From: Arcobacter sp.
GTDB taxonomy: Bacteria > Campylobacterota > Campylobacteria > Campylobacterales > Arcobacteraceae
Reading direction: 5' to 3'
Assembly: GCA_965662175.1 (NCBI GenBank)
Contig: CBFIGT010000081.1
Span: 1 to 10,237, forward strand
Length of the DNA stretch: 10,237 nucleotides
Notes under the pieces: generated by a model
What the model was told of the DNA's origin: nothing
What the model saw: only the letters and a program-made list of their open reading frames with translations
Database searches by the model: none
Made by a program: the position numbers and the translations under genes
Shown: piece by piece, positions 2,770-10,237 of the stretch
How the letters are laid out: the number at the start of each line of letters is the position of its first letter
Numbering within the stretch: position 1 is the stretch's first letter

Positions 2770-2794
2770 TATGTAAGTTCTTTGAACTTACATA
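2770..2794. terminator. Probable bidirectional terminator hairpin between the convergent DCC and cheY-like genes
   Basis: TATGTAAGTTC-TTT-GAACTTACATA, an 11-bp perfect stem overlapping the stop codon of the receiver gene. Confidence 0.55.
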
Positions 2795-3165
2795 ATATAA
2801 ACTAACTTATCTAAAACTTGTTTGATTTTTTCTTCATTTACAGGTTTTAATATATAACCCTTTGCTCCAAGTGTAATAGCTTCAATTACTAGTTTTTCTT
2901 CACCATGTGAGGTTAGCATAATAACTGTAGCTGAGGGGTCAAATTCATGAATAAGCTTTAAAGCATCTATTCCATTTTTTACTCCATTAACTTCAGGCAT
3001 AGTAATATCCATTGTTACAAAATCAGGTAGGGTTTCTTTATATCTATCTAAAGCTTCACTTCCATTTGTTGCTTCAGCAACAACAGTATGACCTAAGTTT
3101 TTAAGCTTCTCTTTTATAGTATATCTCATAACTGCGATATCATCAACAACTAAAACATTTGCCAT
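2788..3165 (-). CDS. Single-domain CheY-like response regulator
   Basis: 125 aa. VLVVDD acidic pocket, phospho-acceptor Asp in VTMDITMP, Thr/Ser in MLTSHG, GAKGYILKP. No output domain. Confidence 0.93.
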   Translation of the reverse strand: MANVLVVDDIAVMRYTIKEKLKNLGHTVVAEATNGSEALDRYKETLPDFVTMDITMPEVNGVKNGIDALKLIHEFDPSATVIMLTSHGEEKLVIEAITLGAKGYILKPVNEEKIKQVLDKLVYIM

Positions 3166-3176
3166 ATTTTTCCTTT

Positions 3177-6100
3177 TTAATTAATTATTATAAGTGCTAA
3201 ATTAAAGTTTCCAAAAGAGGATTCCATATTTTTACTAAGAAATTTATTTTTTTTAATCATATTCTCTATTATTGTTTTATCAAAAGCTAAAGGTGCCGAA
3301 AACTCAAAATTTTGATATTTGTTATTGTTAGAACTTAAACAGTTTCCTAAAATAGTATTTAAGCTTTCATCACATAAACTTTGATACATTCCTAATTTTT
3401 CATCATCAGCTAACTTGGCATCAATAAATATTTTGATTATATTATCTAAAATAGTTAAATCACAAGAAAATAGAGCCAAAATCTCATAATCAGGAGTTGA
3501 TATTTTTATAATAGAGTAGTAGTTTTTAAAATCAAATATTGACTTGTTTTCAATCTCTTTAAAATCAATATGTATATTATTAGTTAAAAATGTTTTTGTT
3601 ATCTCTAGTAAAGAGTCTAAAAACTGCTCTTGAATAGTTGATTTATATAAAATCATATTAACTAAAGCTGGGAATCTAATAATAAACCTAGAACCAATAT
3701 TAACTTCACTTTCAACTCTTATTGAACCATTTATTTTTTCTAACTCTTTTGTTAAGGCACTTAATCCTATTCCTCTTCCTGAGATTAAATCTGAGTTTTC
3801 TTTTGTTGAAAAATTATCTTTAAATATTAGATTTATAAGCTTTTCATCATCCATTAAAAGTGCTTCTTCTTCACTCATAATACCCTTTTCAATAGCTTTT
3901 GCTCTAATAATATTAGCATCAATACCTTTTCCATCATCACTTATTACAAGTTCAATCTCTTTTTGATTAACTAATTTAAATTGACATAATATTGTACCCT
4001 TTTCATATTTATTCATATTTACTCTATCTTCAGGTAACTCTATACCATGGTCAACTATATTTCTAAAAATATGAACTAAGTTTTTGATAAAATCTTGATA
4101 ACTATTTCTTACAGTTATATTCTCATCGCCAACAATTCTAAGAGGATTGATTTTTTTATTTAATCTTTGTGCTATATTTTCAACTCTTTTAGGATAAATA
4201 TCTAATAGCATTTTTAGACTTTTTTGATTTAAATTTAAAAAGTCTTTTAATAGATTTTCCATACTATTAATATCTTGTTTATCATTATCAAATAAACTTA
4301 TAACTTTATTTTCATAAAGTTTAAATTTTTCAGCATCTAACTTTATCATTGTATTTGGTTCTAAAAACTCTTTTCCTAAAATTTGTGCTATAAAATCCAA
4401 ATCAGAATTAAAAGAGTCTTTAAGGCTGTTGTTATTTAGTATTTCATTTAAAACTTCATTTGTTAATATATTTTTCTTATATAGTTTTATTATTTTTGAT
4501 TCTAGTTCATGCAGTGCTTGAGTTGTATTTACAAGCTCTTCTTGGGCAAAAAGTCCTTTAAAAGTATGAAGTGATTTTGTTATATTTAAAAAGTTTTCTT
4601 CAATACTATTTCTATCAAGTTTTTTAACACTAAGGTCTGTAATAAAATCAAAAAAACTATTTTTAAGTTCTATAAATTCACTTTTTCTAGTAGCAATTGC
4701 AACAATCATCTTTTGTATTCTATTTTCATACTCTATTTTCTCTTTTAAGCGATTTGTTTCTGTTATATCTTCTAAAATAACCATAAACTCTTTATCATTA
4801 ATAATTTTATATTTTATTGAAAATGTTATACCATTTATGCTATTTTCTTGAGGAAGAAGAGTTAGTAAAATCTCTTTTTGTAAAGAGTTATTTGCTTCTG
4901 TAATACCTCTTATACCAAACTCAAATATCTCTTTTTTCTCTTCATTATTATAAAATAAAGCCTCAGAAATAGAAAGCTCTTTTAAGTCATCTTGTGAGAG
5001 TATATAAAGACTCTTTTTTGAGTAAGCATCTTTTATTATAAGGTTTTTATCAAAAGAGATAAAACCATTATTTGCATTATCAAGTAGGGTTGTAACTTGT
5101 TCATTTAGATATTGGGCATATTTTTCTTGAGTAATATCTTGTCTTACAGATGTATATCCAATTATATTATTATTGTTATCAAAGGTTGGACCTACAGTAC
5201 TTCTAGTCCAATAGTAGTTTTTGTCTTTTGCGAGATTTTTAATCTCACCTGTCCATATTTCACCTTTTTTTATTGTTTGCCAAAGCTCTTTATATACCTC
5301 TTTTGGCATATCAGGATGTCTTACTATATTGTGAGGTTTATTAAAAACCTCCTCTTTTGAATATTTTGAAATATTACAAAAGGCATCACTTGCATAGTTT
5401 ATATACCCTTTCAAATCAGTTTTAGTAAGAATTACATATTGATTTATATATTCATGTAGCTTTGATAACTCTAAACTCTTTTTTTCTATTTCATTCATAT
5501 TATCATCAATATTTTTTATAATAGAGTTTTTAAGTCTAAAACTAAAAATACTTAAAAATAGAATAATAAAAAAGTTAATAAATAAAATAGAGATAATTTT
5601 GTTAAGTTCAATATAATAAAAATCTTCACCAAACTCTTGCATATTTTCTGTAACATAGTTGTTTAGGTTAAAAAAATCATTTTTTAAATTTTCATTTAAT
5701 TTTATTAAATCATCAATTTGATAAATCTCTTTATTATTGATATATTTATCAAAATCTTGAATACTTTTACTTTCCAAAAGATTTTTATAAATCTCTTGAA
5801 ATTTTGGAGTTAATGTTGGAATTATAAATGTTTTTAGAAAATTGATATTTTCAAGAATTTTATTAAGCTTTTCATTATTGGGATTATTTTTTAATAAAAG
5901 AATATTTAACTTATAATAGTTTTCACTAAGTTTTAAAATAAGTTCAGTACTTCTAATAATAGTGTTTAATTCAGTATTTGAGTAGTTTGTATTTTTTTTA
6001 TAAATAATCTTTTTTATAAAATTCTCAATAGAGTCTGAATAAAAAGTAGAAATAGTCTCAAAATCATTATTTTTAGATATTACTTTTGTCCTAATTGCAG

Positions 6101-6440
6101 GCAAGATTTTTGCATAGTTTGGGTCTATATCATTTATATACTCATAAGATATGGAGTACTGTTTTGTTAGATTTTCTAGGTTTTCATTATTTGCTTTTAA
6201 AATATATAAAAGGCTCCAAAACCTCTCCTCTTGCAAATAGCTTAATTCATAAAATTGAGCAATAGTTTTATATGATTGATTTTGTAAATCTTTAGCCTCA
6301 TTTAAATTTTTAATTCCATCTTTCATATTAAAAATAGAGAAAAATAAGATTACAACAGCAGGAATGTAAGTTAAAAGAAATAACTTTTTTGTATACTCTT
6401 TTGAAATGCTCTTATTAATTGTGCTAATATTTTTTTCCAT
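3177..6440 (-). CDS. Membrane-anchored CheA-like histidine kinase: 2 TM + NIT-like periplasmic sensor, PAS, PAS-like, HPt, HATPase_c, C-terminal CheX/CheC-like domain
   Basis: TM segments at about aa 20-38 and 282-301. PAS motif HNIVRHPDMP...W...WTGEIKN...YYW. HPt motif LHTFKG (H625). CheA-type boxes HIFRNIVDHGIE, ISDDGKGID, LIFKDNFST, SGRGIGL. C-terminal SLCDESLNTILGN. Confidence 0.88.
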   Translation of the reverse strand: MEKNISTINKSISKEYTKKLFLLTYIPAVVILFFSIFNMKDGIKNLNEAKDLQNQSYKTIAQFYELSYLQEERFWSLLYILKANNENLENLTKQYSISYEYINDIDPNYAKILPAIRTKVISKNNDFETISTFYSDSIENFIKKIIYKKNTNYSNTELNTIIRSTELILKLSENYYKLNILLLKNNPNNEKLNKILENINFLKTFIIPTLTPKFQEIYKNLLESKSIQDFDKYINNKEIYQIDDLIKLNENLKNDFFNLNNYVTENMQEFGEDFYYIELNKIISILFINFFIILFLSIFSFRLKNSIIKNIDDNMNEIEKKSLELSKLHEYINQYVILTKTDLKGYINYASDAFCNISKYSKEEVFNKPHNIVRHPDMPKEVYKELWQTIKKGEIWTGEIKNLAKDKNYYWTRSTVGPTFDNNNNIIGYTSVRQDITQEKYAQYLNEQVTTLLDNANNGFISFDKNLIIKDAYSKKSLYILSQDDLKELSISEALFYNNEEKKEIFEFGIRGITEANNSLQKEILLTLLPQENSINGITFSIKYKIINDKEFMVILEDITETNRLKEKIEYENRIQKMIVAIATRKSEFIELKNSFFDFITDLSVKKLDRNSIEENFLNITKSLHTFKGLFAQEELVNTTQALHELESKIIKLYKKNILTNEVLNEILNNNSLKDSFNSDLDFIAQILGKEFLEPNTMIKLDAEKFKLYENKVISLFDNDKQDINSMENLLKDFLNLNQKSLKMLLDIYPKRVENIAQRLNKKINPLRIVGDENITVRNSYQDFIKNLVHIFRNIVDHGIELPEDRVNMNKYEKGTILCQFKLVNQKEIELVISDDGKGIDANIIRAKAIEKGIMSEEEALLMDDEKLINLIFKDNFSTKENSDLISGRGIGLSALTKELEKINGSIRVESEVNIGSRFIIRFPALVNMILYKSTIQEQFLDSLLEITKTFLTNNIHIDFKEIENKSIFDFKNYYSIIKISTPDYEILALFSCDLTILDNIIKIFIDAKLADDEKLGMYQSLCDESLNTILGNCLSSNNNKYQNFEFSAPLAFDKTIIENMIKKNKFLSKNMESSFGNFNLALIIIN

Positions 6441-6630
6441 ATAATAACCTATAAAAATTATTTTTTATAAATATATACAAATAGCTACCTAGAATTATAT
6501 ATTAATAATATTATTTTATCTGAAATTAAATTAATAAATCTATAAAATAGAACTTAAACAAATAACTTAGTAAAATATGTTGTTGAAAAAAAATAAAAAT
6601 AATGTCTTAATAAACAAAAAAGAGGAACTT

Positions 6631-7014
6631 ATGTCAAAAGAAATATTTTTAGACTCTTCTACAATGATAGTTTCTGAAACCGATGAAAAGGGTATAATTC
6701 TTTATGCAAATAGTGATTTTTGTAAAATTGCTGCTTATTCAAAAGATGAACTTATTGGAAAACCTCACAATATAGTAAGACACTCTGATATGCCGAAAGT
6801 AGCTTTTGAGGATTTATGGAAAACTATTCAAGCAGGTAAAACATGGAATGGAATAGTAAAAAATAGAACAAAAGATGGAAATTTTTATTGGGTAAATGCA
6901 ACAGCTTATCCATCATCTACAAAAGATGGTAAAAAAAGATATATCTCTGTTAGGGTTAAACCTAGCAAAGAAGAGATTGAAAGTGCTGAAGCACTATATA
7001 AAACATTACAATAA
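6631..7014 (+). CDS. Stand-alone Aer-type PAS protein (CetB-like, probably FAD-binding)
   Basis: [43 protein letters not shown]...LW...[17 protein letters not shown]. Start moved from 6577 to the ATG at 6631, which follows RBS AGAGGA and gives 127 aa. Confidence 0.9.
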
Positions 7015-7022
7015 GGAATAAA

Positions 7023-8330
7023 ATGTTTTTTTCAAAAAGTAATGAATATCAAGAGATTTTAGCTGCACTTGAAATATTAGAAAAATATGTAAATAAAGAT
7101 ATAAATTCAATACCTGAGATTAAAAATATTCTAAGTGCTGAGAGAAAAATTATCTTAGACAAAATAGATAAAATCTCTAAAAATATAAAAGAAAAAGATG
7201 TTTCAAATATAAAAGTATTTGGTGAAATAATGCTCTCATTAGAGAAGCTATCTGATGGTATTTTGGATGATAGAGTAGTCTCTCAAACTGAAAATAAAAA
7301 TATAAACTATATTGGAAAAAGTTTTAATTTAATGCTTGATAAGCTTGATAATACTTTTGATGAGGTAATTAATGTTTTAAATGAGTATAAAAATCAAAAC
7401 TACTTAAACAAAGTTAATGTTGATAGTTTTAGGGATGGTAAATTAAGAGTTGTACTTGAGGGAATTAATCAATTAAGGGATGAAATAAGTAAAAACTTAT
7501 CCCAAAATCATAGAAGAGGTTTGATTTTAGAGAATAGTTCAACTGTATTAACTGAAAATGCTTCAAACTTATCTAATCAAAGTACAAACCAAGCAGCTAA
7601 AATTGAAGAGTTATCGGCAACACTAGATGAAATAACGCAAAAAGTTAAAGAAAATACAAACTCAGCTGTTACAATGCTCAATAATGTATCAAATAATGAA
7701 GAGCAAGTTCATCATGGTTTTGAGTTAGCGAAAAAAACTTCCCAATCAATTGAAGAGATAAATAGCTCAACAAATGATGTTAATAGTGCTATTGTAATTA
7801 TTTCTCAAATAGCATTTCAAACAAATATTTTAAGTTTAAATGCAGCTGTTGAAGCAGCAACAGCAGGCGAAGCTGGAAAAGGATTTGCCGTTGTTGCACA
7901 AGAAGTTAGGAATTTAGCCAATAAAAGTGCTGAATCAGCTAAACAAATTGAAAGCTTAATGAATGATTTAAAATCTAAAACTGAACATGGTAAACAAATA
8001 ATTGAACAGATGACAGCTGGATATAAACAGTTAAATGAAAATATAAAAGAGAATTTTATTCATGTTAAAAAAGTAGTTGATTCCTTAAAAGAGCAAGAAG
8101 AGGGGATTAGTATTATTAATGAAGCCATAAGTGATATTGATAGAAATACACAAAATCAAGCTTTAGTTTCTGTAAAAGTTAATGAAATTGCAACTCAAAG
8201 TCAAAATGTAGCAAAACAAATTGTTAGTGTTACAAGTAACTCTTCATTTGAGGGGAAAGAGCAAATTAGTATTAGAGATTTAAATAAAAATCATGATAAT
8301 TATGATGGGAATTGTCGAAGAAATAGATAG
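7023..8330 (+). CDS. Soluble methyl-accepting chemotaxis protein (HAMP-like segments + MCP signalling domain)
   Basis: Hairpin-tip signature [37 protein letters not shown]. No hydrophobic TM stretch is visible. RBS AAGGA overlaps the stop of the upstream PAS gene (8-nt gap). Confidence 0.93.
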
Positions 8331-8343
8331 TTATATATGAGAT

Positions 8344-8787
8344 TTACTCATATATAACTTTTCTTATTCTATCATTTGTATCTATTTTTACTTGGTCATA
8401 TTTTTTTTGGTAAGTTATTTTTTCTTCATTTGAAATTGGAGTTCTAATTGATTTATATTCAACTACTTTACCATCTTTTTTAACAGCACTAACTTCAGCC
8501 CAAACCCAATAAAAACCTTTGTCTTTACGTAGGTTTTTTATGGCACCTGACCAACTTTTACCATTGTTTAAACTATCCCAAAGCTCTTGAAATATAACTT
8601 TGGGCATATCAGGATGTCTTACAATATTATGGTTCTTTCCAACAAGCTCTTCAATCTTATATCCACTAATCAGAGCAAAAAGCTCATTTGCATATGTTAT
8701 TTCACCCTTTAGATTAGTTCTAGAAACTATTAATTCATCTTTTGGAACAATTGTTTCATATAGAAATTCACTTTGATTATATTCCAT
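8344..8787 (-). CDS. Stand-alone Aer-type PAS protein at the end of the nap operon
   Basis: ET.VP.DELIVSRTNLKGEITYANELF..ISGY...ELVGKNHNIVRHPDMP...LW...WSGAIKNLRKDKGFYWV. Starts 1 nt after the napD stop. Confidence 0.9.
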   Translation of the reverse strand: MEYNQSEFLYETIVPKDELIVSRTNLKGEITYANELFALISGYKIEELVGKNHNIVRHPDMPKVIFQELWDSLNNGKSWSGAIKNLRKDKGFYWVWAEVSAVKKDGKVVEYKSIRTPISNEEKITYQKKYDQVKIDTNDRIRKVIYE

Positions 8788-8788
8788 A

Positions 8789-9175
8789 TTATTTCTCTTT
8801 TTCTTCTAAATGTTTAGCAAAGCCATAAATATCTTTTTTCTTTAAGTCTCCATGATAAACGATTTTACTAGGGTCAACATCTTCATCATTTAACATTTTA
8901 GGAACTGCATCTGCATTTTTTAATACATCAATATTTTGATCCAATTCATCTTCACTATAAGCCATTTGCATATCAGCACTTATTACATGTGGAATTGCTT
9001 CTATCACTCTTAATTTTTCTAACTCTTCATTTACATTAGAACCCTCAATTGTAATAATAATTCGACCTTTTTCATCATGCATATGATAATCACACGCTTC
9101 ACAATTTTTCAAATCTAAAACAACTTGGTCTAAATATTTTGGTACCGTTTGTACTACAATACTTGAAATGTTCAT
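8789..9175 (-). CDS. napD: Periplasmic nitrate reductase chaperone NapD
   Basis: MNISSIVVQT...DEKGRIIITIEG...IEAIPHVISADMQMAYSE. Its position after napF-napL matches the Campylobacterota napAGHBFLD order. Confidence 0.93.
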   Translation of the reverse strand: MNISSIVVQTVPKYLDQVVLDLKNCEACDYHMHDEKGRIIITIEGSNVNEELEKLRVIEAIPHVISADMQMAYSEDELDQNIDVLKNADAVPKMLNDEDVDPSKIVYHGDLKKKDIYGFAKHLEEKEK

Positions 9176-9176
9176 T

Positions 9177-10130
9177 TTAATCCTTTAATTTATAATAATT
9201 TATATTCTTGTCATCACTTGATACTAAAATCTCATTATCATTAATAAATATAATTTTAGTAAGAGTCATATTATTGCCTGTAAGTTTAATTAAATCTTTT
9301 TTTGTAATCGTATCAAAGATAGTTACATCATTGTTTTCATTTGATGAATAAGCAGCTAATGTTGCCTTATCATTTAAAGCACAACTATAAATCAAAAAAT
9401 TTGATTCTTTAAAATAGCTTTTATTATCTATATAAAATACAGAACGTCTATCTTGTCCTGCTGTTAAAATTTTTCCATTTTTAAAATCTGTTTGGAAAAC
9501 ATTATCTAGATTTTGATTTTTGTACTCTTTTAAAAGTTCACCATTTTGAGTATTTAAAAGTTTTAAATTTCCACTCTCATCTGCAATTATAATTTTTTGT
9601 TTATTTTCATTTAATGTAAAATAAGAAAATTTTGATTGACTAATTTGTTTATAATAGATATTTTTCTTTTTTTCAATATCATATAAAAATATTTGATTAC
9701 TTAAAAGAGAGTATATAATTCTATTTTTATCTAAAAATTTAGCTCGTGCAATGAAAACTCTTTTTGTATCAGGAATTATAGTTGTAAGTTTTTCATTTTC
9801 ATATATAAAGATATTTCTTCCACCTTTTTCACCTTGGGAAAGAATTAAAACTTTTTCACCAATAACATCAACCGAATAAACTTTACTATTTATAACATCA
9901 CCCATAAAATCTTTTATTTTAGGTAATAAAATTCTACTTTCTAACTCTTTTGTAGATAAATTAAAAATATCAACACTACTTGCAGTTGTTCCAGCATAAA
10001 GTTTGTTATTTTGGATTACTAAATCAGTTACTCCACCACTTGCCATAATTTTGTAAGTTGGTGTAAGAGTTACAGCTTTTAATGAACTTAGTAAAAAAAA
10101 TAGTAAAAAAAATAGTTTTAAAAATTTCAT
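9177..10130 (-). CDS. napL: NapL, periplasmic WD40/beta-propeller nitrate reductase accessory protein
   Basis: 317 aa with a Sec-type signal peptide (MKFLKLFFLLFFLLSSLKA), LPKIKDFMGD...KVYSVD, DESG, N.DNVF, TAGQDRR and FLIYS motifs. Lies between napF and napD. Confidence 0.88.
   Translation of the reverse strand: MKFLKLFFLLFFLLSSLKAVTLTPTYKIMASGGVTDLVIQNNKLYAGTTASSVDIFNLSTKELESRILLPKIKDFMGDVINSKVYSVDVIGEKVLILSQGEKGGRNIFIYENEKLTTIIPDTKRVFIARAKFLDKNRIIYSLLSNQIFLYDIEKKKNIYYKQISQSKFSYFTLNENKQKIIIADESGNLKLLNTQNGELLKEYKNQNLDNVFQTDFKNGKILTAGQDRRSVFYIDNKSYFKESNFLIYSCALNDKATLAAYSSNENNDVTIFDTITKKDLIKLTGNNMTLTKIIFINDNEILVSSDDKNINYYKLKD
10089..10116. repeat. 12-bp tandem repeat (TAGTAAAAAAAA x2.3) in the napL signal-peptide coding region
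   Basis: TAGT-A8-TAGT-A8-TAGT, encoding LFFL-LFFL on the minus strand. Confidence 0.7.
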
Positions 10131-10131
10131 A

Positions 10132-10237
10132 TCATACCACCTTTATTGCATCTGTTGGGCAAACTTTTAAACAAAACCCACATGAAGTACAGTTTTGAGT
10201 TATTTGGGGTCTAAACATACCAAGAAATTCAATGGCA
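10132..10237 (-). CDS. napF: 3' end of ferredoxin-type protein NapF (5' part outside the window)
   Basis: Translated by hand: ...AIEFLGMFRPQITQNCTSCGFCLKVCPTDAIKVV*. It has a CxxCxxCxxxCP [4Fe-4S] motif, and its stop lies 1 nt before the napL ATG. Confidence 0.88.
   Translation of the reverse strand, partial: AIEFLGMFRPQITQNCTSCGFCLKVCPTDAIKVV

Follow-up and report, generated by a model that had tools for sequence, protein, structure and literature searches.

How does a CheA-type kinase signal when sensors are part of its chain and it lacks a CheW domain for docking to chemoreceptors? The question is raised by two adjacent genes in a 10,237-nucleotide stretch of Arcobacter sp. DNA (GenBank assembly GCA_965662175.1, contig CBFIGT010000081.1), referred to throughout as the window. 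One open reading frame (ORF) encodes the 1087-residue sensor kinase P0001, and the other, 11 nt downstream (3166-3176), encodes P0002, a CheY-like receiver of 125 residues. A first-pass annotation had described both ORFs, their spacing, two hydrophobic segments (around residues 18-40 and 276-304) and the motifs of the kinase, and all were found at the positions given. P0001 is ordered as a transmembrane (TM) segment, a NIT-fold periplasmic domain, a second TM segment, an Aer-type PAS domain, a PAS-like domain, an HPt domain, a P3-like hairpin, a CheA-type ATPase and a CheX domain.

What is observed here is the order of the domains, their folds, the conservation of the catalytic residues and a conserved grouping of kinase, CheX and receiver. 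On this basis P0001 is, with good probability, a dimeric CheW-independent kinase that takes redox and periplasmic input, passes phosphate from H625 to D53 of the receiver and is reset by its tethered CheX, all of these being predicted activities. The membrane-anchored dimer would read the cellular redox or energy state through its Aer-type PAS domain, presumed to bind flavin adenine dinucleotide (FAD) and to provide the main input, and a degenerate NIT fold may add a periplasmic ligand signal. Autophosphorylation on H625 would be followed by transfer to D53 of the adjacent receiver, from which the fused CheX would remove the phosphate again, making CheW and receptor arrays unnecessary. With kinase and phosphatase on one chain, P0001 may set the phosphorylation level of its receiver and insulate it from the chemotaxis CheA of the same genome. 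The combination of sensor, HPt, CheA-type ATPase and CheX without CheW, proposed in the annotation, is supported by profiles, structure matches and conserved gene context.

The Kinase Core and Its CheX Tail

Pfam, run on the single P0001 sequence, detects one PAS domain and HATPase_c and nothing else; HPt, CheX and NIT escape both the Pfam and the NCBIfam single-sequence scans. Because of this, HPt and CheX were identified with family profiles and models. The AlphaFold2 model of P0001, built on a 34-sequence alignment, has a mean predicted local distance difference test score (pLDDT) of 81 and a predicted template modeling score (pTM) of 0.37, so that its single domain folds are reliable and their mutual arrangement is not.

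The internal HPt that the annotation had placed at H625 leads, through the family profile, to CheA P1 structures. The best PDB match of a profile of 73 HPt regions is Thermotoga maritima CheA P1 (1tqg, E 8.6e-6), with the histidines aligned, and a search of the 6713 ORFs of the same genome with a separate family profile returns only P0001 and the P1 domain of the canonical CheA. Pfam Hpt matches 44 of the 73 core sequences at E <= 0.1, and the H-box motif, LHTFKG (624-629) in P0001, is present in 117 of the 120 homologs listed. The ATPase carries the motifs NIVDHGIE (794-801), DDGKGID (835-841), FST (877-879) and SGRGIGL (887-893). CheA P4 is its best fold match (1i58; Z 22.7, root-mean-square deviation (rmsd) 2.6, 186 residues aligned), and its top NCBIfam matches are CheA models, all under their cut-offs.

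Between HPt and ATPase lies a helical hairpin. Residues 696-927 superpose on CheA P3-P4 (1b3q; Z 23.2, rmsd 6.2, 218 aligned), and in the model the hairpin of residues 696-738 is shorter than CheA P3; Pfam H-kinase_dim is not among the family matches listed for relatives or core sequences. A homodimer model whose interface is formed mainly by this hairpin scores 0.44, against 0.01 for the best of three controls, with at least 82% contact agreement between runs and pLDDT of at least 81. Of 30 proteins whose structures are pairs, 20 reach the mark applied, 0.42; of 23 with single-chain structures, 1 does. The passing score may reflect the model's prior exposure to the solved dimer of CheA P3-P4, a similar complex. 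The models indicate that the kinase likely works as a dimer through the P3-like hairpin.

The annotation had also claimed a CheX-like tail, and both VIA and Foldseek assign it the CheX fold. Folded alone, the tail reaches a pLDDT of 92 and matches 3h2d (VIA Z 13.8, rmsd 2.9, 144 aligned) and Borrelia burgdorferi CheX, 3hzh (VIA Z 13.6, rmsd 3.1, 146 aligned). CheX structures rank first (Z 11-14), followed by FliM, CheC and FliY (Z 7-9); the Z scores of unrelated chains are no higher than 3.9. A CheW/SH3 tail was considered and ruled out, as the top 11 structural matches are all CheX, CheC, FliM or FliY. The tail is thus a CheC-clan fold of CheX size with a single E-x-x-N site and a downstream proline, arranged as S1021-x3-E1025-x2-N1028-x21-P1050. 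E1025 and N1028 align with the catalytic E-x-x-N of B. burgdorferi CheX, and this site is retained in all 33 fused copies among the relatives (32 E and 1 D; 33 N) and in all 30 separate copies. The tail therefore shares its fold and single E-x-x-N site with the CheX phosphatases of B. burgdorferi (3hzh) and T. maritima (1xko), but it is tethered to a kinase and only 10-18% identical to them.

Relatives and Gene Neighborhood

Residues 560-1087, used as a query, gave 3129 matches among 8000 candidates, of which the best 120 were analyzed. All 120 share the PAS-like, HPt and ATPase core (a local profile of PAS-like domain 2 matches every one of those listed), 57 have a fused CheX, none has CheW, and their sensors vary. 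In data holding one genome per species, relatives were found in contigs with an alignment query, a single-sequence query having given no confirmed relative. At least 573 of 603 stretches were confirmed, and 79 loci with 82 kinases were retained, from Campylobacterota, Bacillota, Desulfovibrionaceae, Chromobacterium and others.

CheW is absent from all 82 kinases. CheX is fused in 33, encoded by a neighboring gene within 1.5 kb in 27, and not found within 1.5 kb in 22. A receiver gene lies within 1.5 kb of 69 of the 82 kinases (single-domain in 47), and the grouping of kinase, CheX and receiver is a conserved one. On a quick family tree the fused and separate forms of CheX interleave, with 7 changes, at least 3 of them forced by well-supported branches, which suggests repeated fusion or fission. 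The closest tree neighbor of the window kinase among the 79 loci is an Aliarcobacter record. In L034, the locus of the closest relative, a second class III-type kinase with a fused CheX and no sensor follows the receiver (9779-11695, + strand); it sits on a very long branch and is possibly a degenerate partner. In L086 (3567-6947, + strand) and related Bacillota loci, the kinase-CheX core is joined to a [FeFe]-hydrogenase-like sensor, and the partner receivers are extended at the C terminus by a further domain of about 120-140 residues, with a weak STAS match in L095. In certain loci of Bacillota, the partner is instead an OmpR-type or longer receiver.

Several points weigh against the proposed kinase/phosphatase switch. 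The dimer score of 0.44 is barely above the 0.42 mark, and Pfam has no HPt or CheX match on P0001 itself. Part of the H-box invariance across the 79 loci is built in, the H-box itself having served as one of the search patterns. Two sequences underlie the local CheW profile, but Pfam also found no CheW in the kinases scanned with it. Three of the 22 kinases lacking a nearby CheX lie about 1 kb or less from the end of their locus, and the 22 as a group indicate that the phosphatase is not obligatory. Finally, no gene for cyclic diguanylate (c-di-GMP) signaling, the output discussed below, is present in this window by ORF list and Pfam scan.

Class III Histidine Kinases and Other Known Systems

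The annotation implied that this architecture was new, a claim that does not stand. P0001 matches the class III histidine kinases (HKIII). Members of this class are accompanied by a single-domain receiver, CheX and often a soluble chemoreceptor, and are not known to have a dimerization domain. HKIII were reportedly first noted by Wuichet and Zhulin in Sci Signal in 2010 and reportedly named by Adebali et al. in J Bacteriol in 2017 (199:e00218-17). P0001 shares with them N-terminal sensors placed before an HPt and a CheA-type ATPase, the lack of a CheW-like P5, and receiver and CheX partners; its CheX is on the same chain, as in 33 of the 82 relatives, which may set it apart. The absence of H-kinase_dim from the Pfam matches listed fits a class without a dimerization domain, yet the hairpin that superposes on CheA P3 forms the predicted dimer interface. 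P0001 is thus a variant of an already named, widespread class in which a fused CheX is common. No experimental study of class III kinases was found in the literature searched, most subscription papers lying outside that search.

Canonical class II CheA (T. maritima 1b3q, 1i58 and 1tqg) and P0001 agree in the folds and motifs of the P1-type HPt, the P3-like hairpin and the P4 ATPase. In P0001, however, the HPt is internal (586-690) behind fused sensors, and there is no P2 and no P5/CheW. Nor is a CheX fused to a CheA-type kinase new: PMC10542144 (Berry, Andrianova and Zhulin) describes CheA proteins of Leptospira fused to CheC/CheX, for which a dual role as kinase and phosphatase is proposed. 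As described there, these resemble P0001 in joining a CheA-type kinase to a CheC/CheX domain but are F1-class CheA proteins of chemoreceptor-based systems, whereas P0001 has fused sensors and lacks a CheW domain.

Could P0001 still be coupled to chemoreceptors? The nearest candidates are encoded on the opposite strand, divergent from the kinase (6577-8330, + strand), where a stand-alone Aer-type PAS gene is followed by a 435-residue methyl-accepting chemotaxis protein (MCP; 7023-8330) of the soluble type, with no evident membrane segment. That an MCP gene adjoins the kinase fits the soluble chemoreceptor said to be often part of class III systems, but an MCP occurs anywhere in the locus for just 4 of the 82 kinases, and P0001 lacks the CheW domain needed for docking. 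Such coupling is the least probable of the alternatives considered. By analogy, the PAS and MCP pair would be a split energy-taxis receptor, presumably of the CetB/CetA type; it is not conserved beside the kinase.

Sensor Domains

The periplasmic region, which the annotation had left unassigned, has a NIT fold. Its model (residues 32-277) superposes on the NIT domain of NasR (4akk; VIA Z 21.9, rmsd 3.3, 243 aligned), and hhalign gives 97% to a NIT alignment, versus 0.1% for an MCP control; as a query in a PDB sequence search, the domain has zero matches. PAS1 matches MmoS (6e-33), Escherichia coli Aer (7e-30) and NifL (3e-14) in the PDB, and Aer and NifL PAS domains are also structural matches to the AlphaFold2 model. 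Its residues R374, H375 and W387 are invariant across 16 close relatives. MmoS and Aer bind FAD, and the PDB title of NifL likewise describes it as FAD-binding.

The NIT fold raises the prospect of a nitrate or nitrite sensor tied to neighboring genes of nap and nrf respiration: the window includes nrfH and napD, and Pfam NIT is matched in 3 of 34 relatives. The residues of the fold weigh against this. According to PMC8199190, the nitrate site of NasR is built from two arginines. Like the NIT domain (NasR 4akk; Pfam PF08376), P0001 retains the fold across 243 residues and the first half-site, Q70-x-x-R73; unlike it, P0001 lacks the second, G-x-E-R, and falls beneath Pfam detection. This second half-site is missing in all 11 aligned NIT-type proteins, P0001 and 10 relatives, and the only arginines of P0001 before residue 300 are R73, R117 and R163, with none in residues 164-299. 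Nitrate sensing is doubtful because one of the two nitrate-binding arginines is absent. Furthermore, no nap or nrf gene was seen among the listed and scanned ORFs of L034, the locus of the closest relative, and five close relatives have a different, CxxCH-motif sensor. A nitrate or nitrite sensor is accordingly improbable, and the FAD-type PAS is a likelier input than nitrate through the NIT fold.

The sensor is a variable module in this family. Numerous relatives are soluble PAS- or REC-PAS-kinases without a periplasmic part. In the close relatives P0005, P0006, P0008, P0009 and P0010, the whole cytoplasmic part is common and the NIT fold is replaced by a CxxCH periplasmic domain, by its sequence probably a swap to a c-heme domain; Pfam Tll0287-like is matched in 3 of 34 family members. 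Elsewhere in the genome of this window, a NIT-domain gene (L129; G000:C25:17969-18687, - strand) is split across two frames, which suggests a frameshift or an assembly error.

The Receiver and the Chemotaxis Genes of the Genome

P0002 matches Pfam Response_reg (E 1e-27) and has the residues D8/D9, D53, T85, Y104 and K107. Its best PDB matches are 6er7 and the T. maritima-type CheY 1tmy, and we take the CheY proteins closest to it to be of the F1 type. The T-S-H-G loop of P0002 is shared by 9 of 13 aligned partner receivers and by none of the 4 other CheY-like proteins of its own genome. As P0002 has no DNA-binding domain, it would act by protein contact.

The description of the system as chemosensory-like fits its parts, but a motility output is unsupported, and a complete chemotaxis system is encoded separately in the genome. 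Its canonical CheA lies in a cheY-cheA-cheR-cheD-cheB run on contig C83, and further sets, named by reading their sequences, are cheY-cheZ, cheY-cheC and cheW-cheY. This arrangement fits the Arcobacter layout described in PMC9321776. Five carriers of class III kinases were examined, 3 of them without a canonical CheA match earlier, and all 5 have CheW-domain genes; a class III carrier devoid of a chemotaxis system was sought, and no case was shown.

P0002 might nonetheless be a true CheY that biases the flagellum directly, as a non-adapting energy-taxis input parallel to the main chemotaxis pathway. It is nearest to solved CheY proteins, the PAS domain is of the Aer type, flagellar genes are present in the genome, and FliM is found in 44 of 46 Arcobacteraceae carriers. 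FliM is also found in 1 of 11 genomes without a CheA-like match, and its presence is better read as a background trait of the family than as the mark of a specific partner; the locus has no adaptation enzymes. In addition, PMC9321776 argues that in Arcobacter only the cheZ-adjoining CheY binds FliM, with W58 among the key residues. The cheZ-linked CheY of this genome has W at that position, and P0002 has I. A direct flagellar output is possible but rather unlikely.

pilT and the Output of the System

According to a passage of PMC6501615, HKIII occur also in genomes without chemotaxis genes and always alongside a marker gene for type IV pilus twitching motility. Twitching control, the function proposed for class III kinases in general, is one candidate output of the present system. 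The link was examined by a census of pilT, scored at the TIGR01420 cut-off. Outside Arcobacteraceae, pilT exceeds the cut-off in 43 of 50 carrier genomes, chosen by record title from the 79 loci and possibly including a few from the family, which fits the pilT link in that passage. Within Arcobacteraceae, 46 of 150 sampled genomes were counted as carriers, on the condition that the best match had E < 1e-45 and covered the HPt, and leaving aside two matches that were weaker and partial; pilT exceeds the cut-off in 1 of these 46 and in 0 of 34 non-carriers tested. It stays under the cut-off in 9 of 10 single-contig carriers. The sole case among the 80 family genomes tested is a pilT/pilU pair (G001:C1:509582-511677, - strand). 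A literature search on pilT in Arcobacter yielded no relevant paper among the 15 entries listed. The genome of this window (94% complete) has no pilT over the cut-off; its best match, at 196 bits against 319, is a GspE/PilB-type ATPase.

This genome also encodes a TadA-type ATPase, which together with the GspE/PilB-type ATPase leaves some room for a pilus. The Tad pilus was considered as an output and rejected: the TadA-type query does not track carriers, being matched in 19 of 46 of them and in 9 of 34 non-carriers. Both pilT and the TadA-type motor are absent from 7 single-contig carriers. The CpaB model TIGR03177 missed even this genome, which makes the CpaB test uninformative. All carrier and non-carrier figures are counts rather than a statistical test, because kin are not independent. 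With pilT missing here and in 45 of 46 carriers, twitching-pilus control in this genome is unlikely, and the type IV pilus explanation as a whole retains a small probability.

The output ranked first is c-di-GMP or other lifestyle signaling, itself a tentative choice; the flagellar switch and outputs of other kinds come next, each rather unlikely, and pili come last. Among relatives, the receiver of L005 is followed by a GGDEF gene, and 7 further loci of 30 in the family, which probably represent a single lineage, have a gene sharing that N terminus in this position. REC-GGDEF and REC-EAL neighbors occur in L067, L081 and L108.

The function proposed for class III kinases is said to rest on co-occurrence with pilT. 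Against this, 46 carriers in 150 genomes, several single-contig and nearly all without pilT, are a direct counter-example that challenges the proposed function. A tentative proposal, short of probable, is that in Arcobacteraceae class III kinases are uncoupled from pili and have expanded into modular one-chain kinase/phosphatase switches with a conserved PAS-HPt-ATPase core dimerized through a shortened P3, interchangeable sensors, a dedicated CheY subfamily and a non-pilus output. The sensors in this case would be a FAD redox PAS and a NIT fold turned to some ligand that is not nitrate. If so, the published function of the class would not be general. Class III kinases are a described intermediate between two-component and chemotaxis signaling, and the pilT-less family points to where their real output can be found. 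The minimal two-gene form, a kinase/phosphatase chain with one receiver, suits a first biochemical reconstitution. Since the architecture is common and already named, the surprise is moderate, and the best new point is the scarcity of pilT in Arcobacteraceae carriers.

Features of the Locus and the Surrounding Window

The features of the locus are collected in Table 1. The hairpin across the receiver stop codon has weak support as a terminator (2 hairpins against 1.1 +/- 1.1 in shuffles), and a promoter scan was uninformative (49 sites against 39.3 +/- 6.8 in shuffles).

Table 1. Coordinates of the kinase, its domains, the receiver and the adjacent hairpin in the window
Feature	Coordinates	Strand	Basis or remark
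Sensor kinase P0001	3177..6440	-	1087-aa ORF, class III-type histidine kinase with fused CheX
Receiver P0002	2788..3165	-	125-aa ORF, single-domain, presumed F1 CheY type
TM1, residues 18-40	6321..6389	-	Hydropathy; helix in model
Periplasmic NIT-fold domain, residues 41-275	5616..6320	-	Structure match and hhalign
TM2, residues 276-304	5529..5615	-	Hydropathy
PAS1 (Aer/MmoS/NifL type), residues 337-440	5121..5432	-	Predicted FAD redox sensor; Pfam PAS_3 E 1e-15
PAS-like domain 2, residues 446-560	4761..5105	-	PAS-type strand/helix order in model
Internal HPt (CheA P1-like), residues 586-690	4371..4685	-	H625 (codon 4566-4568) predicted to accept the phosphate
Shortened P3-like helical hairpin, residues 696-738	4227..4355	-	Predicted dimer interface
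CheA-type ATP-binding domain (P4), residues 739-927	3660..4226	-	Structure match
Fused CheX domain, residues 936-1087	3180..3635	-	Predicted phosphatase; E1025, N1028, G1032, P1050
AT-rich 11-pair hairpin across receiver stop codon	2770..2794	-	Possible terminator between convergent genes

A link of the kinase to nap/nrf genes or to a divergent PAS-MCP pair was looked for in L034 and five other extended loci and was not seen. In the window, the end of a nap operon (8344-10237, - strand) comprises a ferredoxin fragment, a beta-propeller protein and napD, followed directly by another stand-alone PAS gene. The nrfH gene lies at the left edge (1-510, - strand). Between serS and a DCC1-like gene, an open stretch without an evident start codon (2101-2385, + strand) matches the C-terminal third of DUF2071 (E 1.1e-5, profile positions 128-198 of 212) and resembles a truncated gene remnant.

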